Below, piece after piece: positions 32,077-33,665 of a DNA stretch of 64,000 bases. The DNA is taken from the NCBI GenBank assembly GCA_951406725.2, contig OX597828.1, forward strand, positions 6,882,001-6,946,000, read 5' to 3'. Position numbers and translations under genes: made by a program. Positions within the stretch are counted from its first letter, which is position 1. Each line of letters starts with the position of its first letter. Source of the DNA: Octopus vulgaris. Lineage: Eukaryota. The notes below the pieces were generated by a model that was not told where the DNA came from, made no database searches, and saw nothing but the letters and a program-made list of their open reading frames with translations.

Positions 32077-33665
32077 AGCGCAGGAGTGGCTGTGTGGTAT
32101 GTAGCTTGCTTACCTATTTCCCATGAGTTTCTGTTGTCATTGTACGCATGTGTCATTGTGTTATGCACTGAAGAAGATAGCCGGCAGTGTTTTTAGCCTG
32201 CCAAAAGAAGCTGCTGCAAGGTAAGACGTTGGTTCAGTAGGGGTTGTTGTCTGTGGTTATAATTTTTACAAACAAGGAAACCTCACTGGATTTAAGATGT
32301 TGGTCTGCTTGCGGTTCAGCAATATTGTTCACATTAAGTGAAAATTTTTTAATAGTGTATGTTTTTACAACATTTACCATTTATTGGAAAGCTGTATTTC
32401 AAGTGTTCACATGAAGGGAAAATTTTTTCTCATGCTGAGAAGTATAGTTTGGTGACGTATCCTGCCACCAAAAGTCGTTCGGTGTTTGTAAATAGAGTGT
32501 TTGTAAATTTTACAACTACGTTGGAAAGCTGTATTCAAGTGGAGCATTCCAGGTTCGAAGTGAATGTCCAGAAGATTTTTTTGCTGTGTTTTTCTTTTTT
32601 GAACAATTGTTTTCTTCTTCTATTGTGAATTTGTATTGAACTGTTTGTTTTTTTTTCTTCTTCTCTTTTGTTTTCTTTTGAATTCTCTCTTTTCTTTCTT
32701 GTGAACTATTGTTTTGGACATGGCAAAGAAATACGGATAAGATTGTAGAGTGGGAGATTGTCCCACCTAAGGAGTGGCTCAGACAGCAAGAGGAGAGTAC
32801 GATGGTGTTGAGAACGTATTCGAAGGTTCTCGACACCATTGCCGTCTTCTCCAAGCAGATGATTGAGCAGAAGTTGGCAGAACATCTACCAACCATTAAA
32901 TATATCTCTAGGGGAGTCAAACATGCAACGGTGTAGTTGCTGTTTGACAACCCAGAGGGTGCTCGCAGTTTTGCGAGCCAGCCCGTTGAGGGTAAAGAAA
33001 TTTTGTTTCTTCCCACTTATTGTGGGACAAAATTGACGAGGGCCTGGATCTGTGGTTTGCCACCCGGAATTCAACCCCAGTGGTTAGAGGATGCTATCCG
33101 TCGGGGTTTGGGTGGCAGCGGAGACAAATTACCTCGTTTTCTCTTTTTCTGTGCAAAAACAGAAGAGAATAATGTTTTAGAGAAGTAGAAAATCGGCGGG
33201 CGTTTTTTGTGTTCTCCCATTAATATCATCCTTTCCATCATTCACCTCATCAATGTCTTTGTCTAGCCCGCAAGCTACTCTGCATCATGCCTTTATGACA
33301 AAATTTTTGAAATAAAGTAGCTTGCTTACCAACCACATGGTTCCCAGTGGTACCTTGGGCAAGTGTCTTCTACTATAGCCTCAGGCCGATTAAAGTCTTG
33401 TAAGTGGATTTGGTAGAGAGAAACTGAATGAAGCCCGTCGTATATGTATATATGTGTGTGTGTGTGTGTGTTTGTGTGTGTGTATCTGTGTTTGTACACC
33501 CACCACTGCTTGACAACCAATGTTGGTGAGTTTATATCCCCGTAACTTAACGGTTCGGCACAGGAGACCGATAAAATAAGTGCTGGCTTACATAGAATAA
33601 GTTCTGAGGTTGATTTGTCCAACTTGCTCCAGCATGGCGGCAGTCAACTGACTGAAACCAATAAA
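32077..33665 (+). mobile_element. SINE-A copy split in its tRNA-like head by a 1.2-kb insertion
   Basis: agcgcaggagtggctgtgtggtatgtagcttgcttacc (32077-32114) resumes as gtagcttgcttaccaaccacatggttccc at 33317. Confidence 0.92.
32115..33316 (+). mobile_element. ORF1-only (HAL1-like) non-LTR retroelement, copy A, probably Tx1/L1-derived
   Basis: 14-bp TSD gtagcttgcttacc; ends in aataaa. In-frame ORFs 32709-32936 and 32937-33188 are separated by one stop and read …ISRGVKHATV*LLFDNPEGARSF…FLPTYCGTKLTRAWICGLPPGIQPQWLEDAIRRG, resembling LINE ORF1 RRMs. No RT. Confidence 0.75.

Follow-up and report, generated by a model that had tools for sequence, protein, structure and literature searches.

HAL1 elements proper possess a mammalian L1-type first open reading frame (ORF1) and a poly(A) tail, and Bao and Jurka reportedly found in 2010 that this ORF1 is kept under purifying selection. 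HAL1 is non-autonomous, encoding the ORF1 protein (ORF1p) only (PMC5753468). In Dictyostelium, the excerpted part of PMC5633606 describes TRE5-A.2 as an ORF2-less element that is mobilised in trans and targets transfer RNA (tRNA) genes. As set out in excerpts of PMC4494074, Tx1 of Xenopus inserts into Tx1D, crocodilian Tx1-Mar inserts together with SINEU-3 into Mariner-N4_AMi, and Kibi, a member of the Tx1 clade, inserts into (TC)n microsatellites of teleosts; the Tx1 targets named in those excerpts are DNA transposons, long terminal repeat elements, small nuclear RNA or 5S genes, satellites and microsatellites, with no short interspersed element (SINE) among them. Thirteen recently active L1-Tx1 families were reported from an octopus in PMC13282606, the excerpted text of which contains no target analysis. 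The present study concerns a 64,000-nucleotide stretch of the Octopus vulgaris genome (GCA_951406725.2, contig OX597828.1, positions 6,882,001 to 6,946,000 of the forward strand; the window), in which a SINE, here called SINE-A, is split in its tRNA-like head by a 1202-bp retroelement. This element very probably represents a non-autonomous, ORF1-only lineage of the L1/Tx1 group that is fixed at one position of the SINE head and is likely inserted by target-primed reverse transcription (TPRT) with the endonuclease and reverse transcriptase (RT) of a 5.5-kb autonomous partner.

Results

Insertion site and target SINE

The insert lies between two exact 14-bp copies of GTAGCTTGCTTACC spaced by 1202 bp, the second of which directly follows AATAAA (coordinates in Table 1); without it, the flanks read as a single SINE copy, of a kind found many times across the window. 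The long 5′ leader, the single decayed ORF and the absence of RT from the 1202 bp, which also lack an endonuclease, were found as the first-pass annotation had described them, with the refinement that the target-site duplication is probably 16 bp long (32099–32114 and 33315–33330, starting at AAG, with one mismatch at 32100), because relatives mostly have duplications of 15–17 bp that start at AAG.

Exact tail motifs were followed by AGTAG in 512 of 705 cases genome-wide (73%, all tail types), which is a minimum, since mutated targets escape an exact match. Chance is excluded: the junction is found hundreds of times, and patterns reversed as controls produced 0 matches in the genome-wide motif counts. 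Loci selected by within-tail patterns ran into the SINE target in 26 of 29 cases; in a second tail-selected set covering more subfamilies, this was recognised by script in 26 of 30 and by eye in 3 more, which were degenerate. When the insert itself served as the genome query, the best 40 of 2433 candidates were scored, and among the best-scored relatives (n = 29) all 15 with the tail found in the sequence end at the SINE site. Most copies are thus located where the first-pass annotation expected them. Insertion is base-exact and in a single orientation, no poly(A) was seen at the element/SINE junctions, and none of the 59 tail-selected loci proved to be an insertion in a genuine tRNA gene. Two off-target copies (L087 and L102) are each flanked by a duplication of their own, which begins with (T)AAGT.

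The target appears to be a tRNA-derived SINE whose head carries A and B boxes. The head is colinear with a genomic tRNA-Ala gene, tRNA-Ala being the best of 30 sampled tRNA loci, a sample with few isotypes and no Gly tRNA; the tRNA search scored the best 63 of about 656,000 candidates, and ARAGORN and Rfam made no tRNA call on the SINE heads. The proposed site between the A and B boxes holds for the SINE family, where the insertion falls between A-box-like and B-box-like motifs, but in the window copy itself two small deletions have removed most of the B box. Genome-wide, the exact junction 30-mer occurs 265 times and the exact empty 33-mer of the same subfamily 26,278 times, and about 1% of the SINE sites are therefore occupied. 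Splitting a SINE in this way would presumably abolish its transcription by RNA polymerase III (Pol III), which would concern only that 1% of exact sites, the window copy having no B box anyway.

The autonomous partner and its relatives

Autonomous copies with the same tail and target, of the kind anticipated by the first-pass annotation, were found among extended junction loci as full-length elements of 5.45–5.5 kb between SINE head and SINE body (L063, L064 and L068); an ORF2 fragment ending at a SINE junction also lies upstream of L012. The partner ORF1 contains zf-CCHC, and its ORF2 contains Exo_endo_phos (PF03372), RVT_1 (PF00078) and zf-RVT (PF13966). The closest solved structure to its RT is L1 ORF2p, with an E-value of 3e-36 versus 5e-21 for R2. 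Stop-free frames of 1133–1150 amino acids (aa) with 94–100% identity occur in 14 of 144 RT matches, and the five intact-ORF2 copies that were checked all terminate at the SINE site. The ORF1-only element and the partner have the final ~40 nt of the tail in common. The predicted relationship of the window ORF to ORF1 of long interspersed elements (LINEs) was also borne out, since the ORF1-only ORF1 is homologous to that of the partner (29% identity to L063 ORF1 over 196 aa, E 5e-24).

Membership of the partner in the Tx1 clade is likely on circumstantial grounds. It belongs to the L1 group and combines an apurinic/apyrimidinic-type endonuclease (APE), RT and a C-terminal zinc finger, as Tx1 elements do, and its 73% exact flanks genome-wide lie above the >20% of flanks by which target specificity is recognised in the excerpted part of PMC4494074. 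Moreover, of 11 checked copies of sister families (73–77% RT identity), 8 terminate in (TC)n and 3 at unrelated sites, two of the (TC)n copies having an identical flank; a sister family at (TC)n, like Kibi, supports the Tx1 assignment. No Tx1-named entry was found among the protein matches and cluster look-up listed.

Several observations were made on related elements. Eight loci (L241–L246, L249 and L251) represent a sister autonomous family with a (TC)n target, 76–77% RT identity and frames of up to 1138 aa. Other sister families (L247, L248 and L250) lie at unrelated sites, and two matches 5.3 kb apart on contig C6 are possibly in tandem. In the limpet Patella caerulea (cluster P0113), related ORF2 proteins occupy many consecutive locus tags on one contig, which suggests a tandem array at a specific target. 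The closest named proteins come from Argonauta hians and Octopus sinensis. In the window, pieces resembling the C-terminus of the partner ORF2 (40–59% identity) lie at 3975–4721 and 11688–12101 on the minus strand.

The ORF1-only family and its protein

The window insert is an old, internally deleted copy of an ORF1-only retroelement lineage, the intact element of which is ~2.2 kb long and encodes two RRM-like domains and a CCHC knuckle. Its relatives match positions 1–1012 and 1014–1202 of the insert with ~1 kb extra in between, and the window copy is therefore an internal deletion of a ~2.2-kb element; at the deletion junction, the equivalent of position 1074 of L002 is joined to that of position 2072. 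The lost ~1 kb comprised the remainder of ORF1, with the CCHC knuckle, and the start of the 3′ untranslated region (UTR). What remains of ORF1, cut at about residue 137, spans the first RRM-like domain and the start of the second, with 66% identity to residues 5–137 of the intact L214 ORF1, an early frameshift and one stop; Pfam recognised no relevant family in the window ORF pieces. The 1202 bp thus do not represent the family length, full copies measuring mostly 1.9–2.3 kb.

An intact ORF1 of 414–418 aa, followed by a 3′ UTR of ~300 bp, is present in L214, L217, L138 and L231–L240, and twelve near-identical young copies are intact with this common layout. The predicted structure of ORF1 residues 1–209 (mean predicted local distance difference test score, pLDDT, 79; 16-row alignment) contains two alpha/beta domains and the knuckle. 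Top Foldseek matches of this model were tandem-RRM proteins (E ~2e-4, TM ~0.3), and in VIA each half of the model aligned mainly to single RRMs (best Z 8.9, root-mean-square deviation 3.3, 82 residues aligned). A homolog search with the ORF1-only protein returned just 2 matches, both from Octopus sinensis. Pairwise ratios of nonsynonymous to synonymous substitutions (dN/dS) in stop-free ORF1 stretches of eight copies fell between 0.14 and 0.33 for 27 of the 28 pairs, with dS reaching values >1.5; the remaining pair, two old copies of one subfamily, gave 0.68. Low dN/dS at high dS points to an old lineage with a selected ORF1p, and ORF1 is, from these ratios (dN/dS about 0.2), under purifying selection.

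Near-identical ORF1 sequences and tails were also seen on different 5′ ends (L120 and L216 compared with L214 and L211), which suggests swapping of the 5′ UTR between young subfamilies. The young element is covered piecewise by contigs of runs guessed to be RNA, a result that was counted neither way.

Alternative explanations

Several observations weigh against the proposed reading. A 5′ SINE head was identified by script at 32 of 70 junction-selected loci, with about 8 more recognised by eye and none in the sequence covered at the remaining loci, and element identity correlates weakly with SINE-flank identity (Spearman 0.36, 215 pairs). In the ORF1-only protein, Pfam detected zf-CCHC only below threshold and no RRM at all, the VIA Z-scores of 8–9 are middling, and the Foldseek TM-scores are ~0.3. 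Trans-mobilisation by the partner is argued from the common tail and site, a chimeric copy (L007) also being cited toward it. Finally, because the genome searches scored the best candidates only, an unseen autonomous family with the ORF1-only type of ORF1 is conceivable.

The first two observations would be expected if a single ancestral insertion had produced a composite of SINE head, insert and SINE body that was subsequently copied by the SINE's own LINE, and the concentration of young elements in one SINE subfamily could be read in the same way. Comparison of elements with their surroundings makes this explanation extremely improbable. Fourteen young copies are 99.5% identical over the last 1500 bp, and their 70-bp SINE flanks are 92.9% identical (84–100%, 91 pairs); elements 99.5% alike in SINEs only ~93% alike imply independent insertion. 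In a wider set, elements 98–100% alike lie mostly in SINE bodies 83–94% alike, i.e., 6–17% different in most top pairs, which is about the level of empty pairs (86.6%). The weak correlation can be explained by age, although composite copying would produce it as well. Around the element plus SINE body, no duplication longer than 8 low-complexity nucleotides was found in the 10 of 17 headless loci in which a SINE end could be located (the other 7 had none), and the headless loci probably result from insertions and deletions that came later. Composite copying also fails to explain why unrelated inserts, both autonomous and of many short subfamilies, share one common site, why private target variants occur in both duplication copies (L197, L201 and L234), and why off-target copies exist. 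Propagation together with the SINE was accordingly rejected on the element and flank identities and the missing enclosing duplication.

Inserts abutting SINE heads range from ~20 bp to 5.5 kb, the truncated ones having variable duplications; duplication length is mostly 15–17 bp in full-length and 7–17 bp in truncated copies. Tandem copies are present at L005, L012, L217 and L232. At three loci (L132, L140 and L201), only ~20–35 bp of the tail lie between full duplications, corresponding to extremely early 5′ truncation.

The second alternative derives the short elements from repeated internal deletions within the unseen autonomous family mentioned above, selection having acted in the parent. 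The window copy, too, arose by deletion, L224 is what deletion has left of an autonomous copy, and searches yielding the best candidates only might have missed such a parent. However, among 121 records of the ORF1-only ORF1 type (overlapping loci counted), five have traces of ORF2, and in only one, L007, do these lie inside the element; this copy is a chimera of an ORF1-only 5′ part with the ORF2 end and tail of the partner, and may have arisen by a template switch or by deletion across a tandem. Together with the common layout of the twelve intact young copies and the size of subfamilies separated by dS >1, all of which measure ~2–2.9 kb, this makes repeated deletion very unlikely, and the preferred interpretation remains a separate ORF1-only lineage served by the partner.

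The 5′ junction and subfamily preference

Among 22 young two-ended copies, the 3′ copy of the duplication is non-TAAC in 9, and the 5′ side still reads TAAC in 7 of these, whereas the other 2 come from a variant whose 5′ end differs. In L234, a private change at position 7 is duplicated and the copies differ at position 13; in L236 and L238, they differ from position 11. A 5′ TAAC in spite of a non-TAAC 3′ copy suggests that the RNA begins with target-derived sequence and that the end of the complementary DNA (cDNA) anneals to the cut top strand, in which case the 5′ duplication copy would be partly element-encoded. According to the excerpted part of PMC4494074, co-transcription with the target strengthens R2 targeting. 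In eight loci (L002, L004, L007, L008, L012, L013, L020 and L026), the window subfamily was seen often to carry at its 5′ end an additional target-like repeat, itself diverged, along with a duplication of the TTCCCATGAG motif, which suggests repeated capture of target sequence there.

For the youngest tail type, the first 100 listed of 139 junctions read TAACC in 87 and TTACC in 13 cases, compared with 27,671 and 26,278 exact empty sites, respectively (87:13 versus 51:49; P ~1e-13), tandem junctions raising the TAAC bias somewhat. An earlier estimate, with 4 members of the TAAC subfamily among 49 empty SINEs, was replaced by this more cautious exact count (51%). Another tail type mostly adjoins a GAAG-TTCCC variant of the SINE, a variant that is seemingly more diverged. 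The pattern suggests that the elements track SINE subfamily turnover, and age alone could also give it.

The TAAC preference, the position of the site between the A and B boxes and the binding of TFIIIB by TRE5-A ORF1p, described in the excerpted part of PMC5633606, would also agree with targeting driven by tethering to Pol III factors on active SINE heads, with only a weak TAAGT preference of the endonuclease, a mode of targeting that has been suggested for TRE5-A. Tethering is compatible with the rest of the proposed model, but as the driving force it is rather unlikely, since insertion is base-exact and in one orientation, both off-target sites carry TAAGT, the sister RT family uses (TC)n, a non-Pol III target, and none of the 59 tail-selected loci is a real tRNA gene insertion. 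The TAAC bias, inflated by tandem junctions, equally fits 5′-tag pairing or target age.

Features of the window

The features of the locus are collected in Table 1, together with a second, older copy.

Table 1 Features of the split SINE and of a second copy in the window
Feature	Position	Strand	Basis
SINE head, 5′ end; A-box-like TGGCTGTGTGG at 32087–32097	32078–32100	+	Intact SINE copies in window; colinear with tRNA-Ala
Target-site duplication, 5′ copy (probably 32099–32114)	32101–32114	+	Repeat match; relatives
5′ untranslated leader of ORF1-only element	32115–32719	+	Full-length relatives align from position 1–4
Decayed ORF1; ATG at 32720, stop at 32934–32936	32720–33126	+	66% to L214 ORF1
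Junction of ~1-kb internal deletion	33126–33128	+	Two-block alignment of relatives
3′ UTR and conserved tail ending in AATAAA (33311–33316), no poly(A)	33128–33316	+	Tail alignments
Target-site duplication, 3′ copy	33317–33330	+	Repeat match
SINE remainder; most of B box deleted, TA/TG microsatellite, 3′ part	33331–33670 (end approximate)	+	
Second, older 5′-truncated copy of related subfamily at same SINE site (ORF1 C-terminal part and tail)	60185–60876	-	

Additionally, a second high-copy SINE was noticed at 33881–34135 (minus strand), with a tail resembling the 3′ UTRs of the partner and sister families, including the sisters' terminal TAAAGAAATA; local scores exceeded the highest value obtained by shuffling in 5 of 6 comparisons, one being marginal (L253, L247, L250 and L244). 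To judge from this likeness, this second SINE is possibly mobilised by some relative of the partner LINE group. It does not itself use the SINE-A site for insertion.

Discussion

In the proposed mechanism, the partner ORF2p would recognise the common ~40-nt tail and its endonuclease would nick the bottom strand at GGT/AAG, leaving a primer ending in TT that could pair with AA of the terminal AAUAAA, replacing poly(A). The top strand would be cut ~15 nt downstream, and the cDNA end of full-length RNAs, bearing a target-derived tag (GCTAAC or GCTTAC), would anneal at this cut. The element's own ORF1p (RRM-RRM-CCHC) is probably required in cis.

A wider view is offered tentatively, as a possibility about which we are more doubtful than confident: a living three-tier system in octopus, made up of a very abundant SINE, a LINE of the Tx1 type and an ancient half-LINE that evolves separately and has a selected ORF1p of its own. 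Both the LINE and the half-LINE would home on the SINE's Pol III promoter, would have tracked its subfamily turnover (GAAG-TTCCC, GTAG-TTACC, GTAG-TAACC) and would update the target-derived 5′ tag that guides the junction. If this were true, the SINE would be a self-renewing safe harbour that is disabled copy by copy, possibly in a retroposon arms race. Already on the preferred interpretation, target choice of the Tx1 type is extended to a SINE promoter head, which is a self-multiplying target, and a protein-coding half-LINE lineage is seen outside vertebrates that relies on a partner and has nevertheless long retained an ORF1p of its own. Since intact copies of both partners and one ~16-bp site are available, retention of ORF1p by the half-LINE, site reading by the APE and the 5′ junction are directly testable. 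At the same time, repeat annotations that split such loci into SINE fragments and "unknown" sequence overlook one coherent family.

Half-LINEs and Tx1 families that target transposons are already known; for octopus, the three-level parasite system is probably new. No SINE-head-targeting Tx1 and no octopus half-LINE were found in a full-text literature search, outside of which Repbase entries may name families, and neither is mentioned in the excerpts of PMC4758252 and PMC13282606.

The first-pass annotation had proposed a HAL1-like element mobilised by a Tx1-type enzyme with a SINE target. The ORF1-only structure, the SINE target and the partner stood, the Tx1 label is circumstantial, and "HAL1" is best taken as an analogy. 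Like HAL1, the octopus element contains ORF1 only, and this ORF1 is homologous to that of an autonomous L1-group element and under purifying selection. In contrast to HAL1, it belongs to an invertebrate, encodes an RRM-RRM-CCHC ORF1p only 29% identical to that of the partner, is strictly site-specific and lacks poly(A); the ORF1-only protein gave no match to any L1 ORF1 Pfam family, and the system is not a mammalian HAL1 proper.

With Tx1 and Tx1-Mar, as they appear in the excerpts of PMC4494074, the octopus system shares an APE-RT enzyme specific for a transposon, tandems around a ~16-bp duplication and a rider with a common target. The rider SINEU-3 is non-coding, whereas the octopus rider is a protein-coding half-LINE, and the octopus target is a retroposon with several subfamilies, unlike the targets described there for Tx1 and Tx1-Mar. 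The likeness to Kibi, compared by target only, concerns the octopus sister family at (TC)n. TRE5-A, as far as the excerpts of PMC5633606 describe it, resembles the octopus system in its ORF2-less variant and in having Pol III genes as target; however, it inserts harmlessly ~50 nt upstream of real tRNA genes, whereas the octopus insertion falls within the SINE promoter region, and TRE5-A.2 is a variant of A.1, whereas in octopus a deep divergence separates the short lineage from the partner. By analogy, the octopus system can be regarded as working like HAL1, Tx1 transposon targeting and TRE5-A.2 combined.
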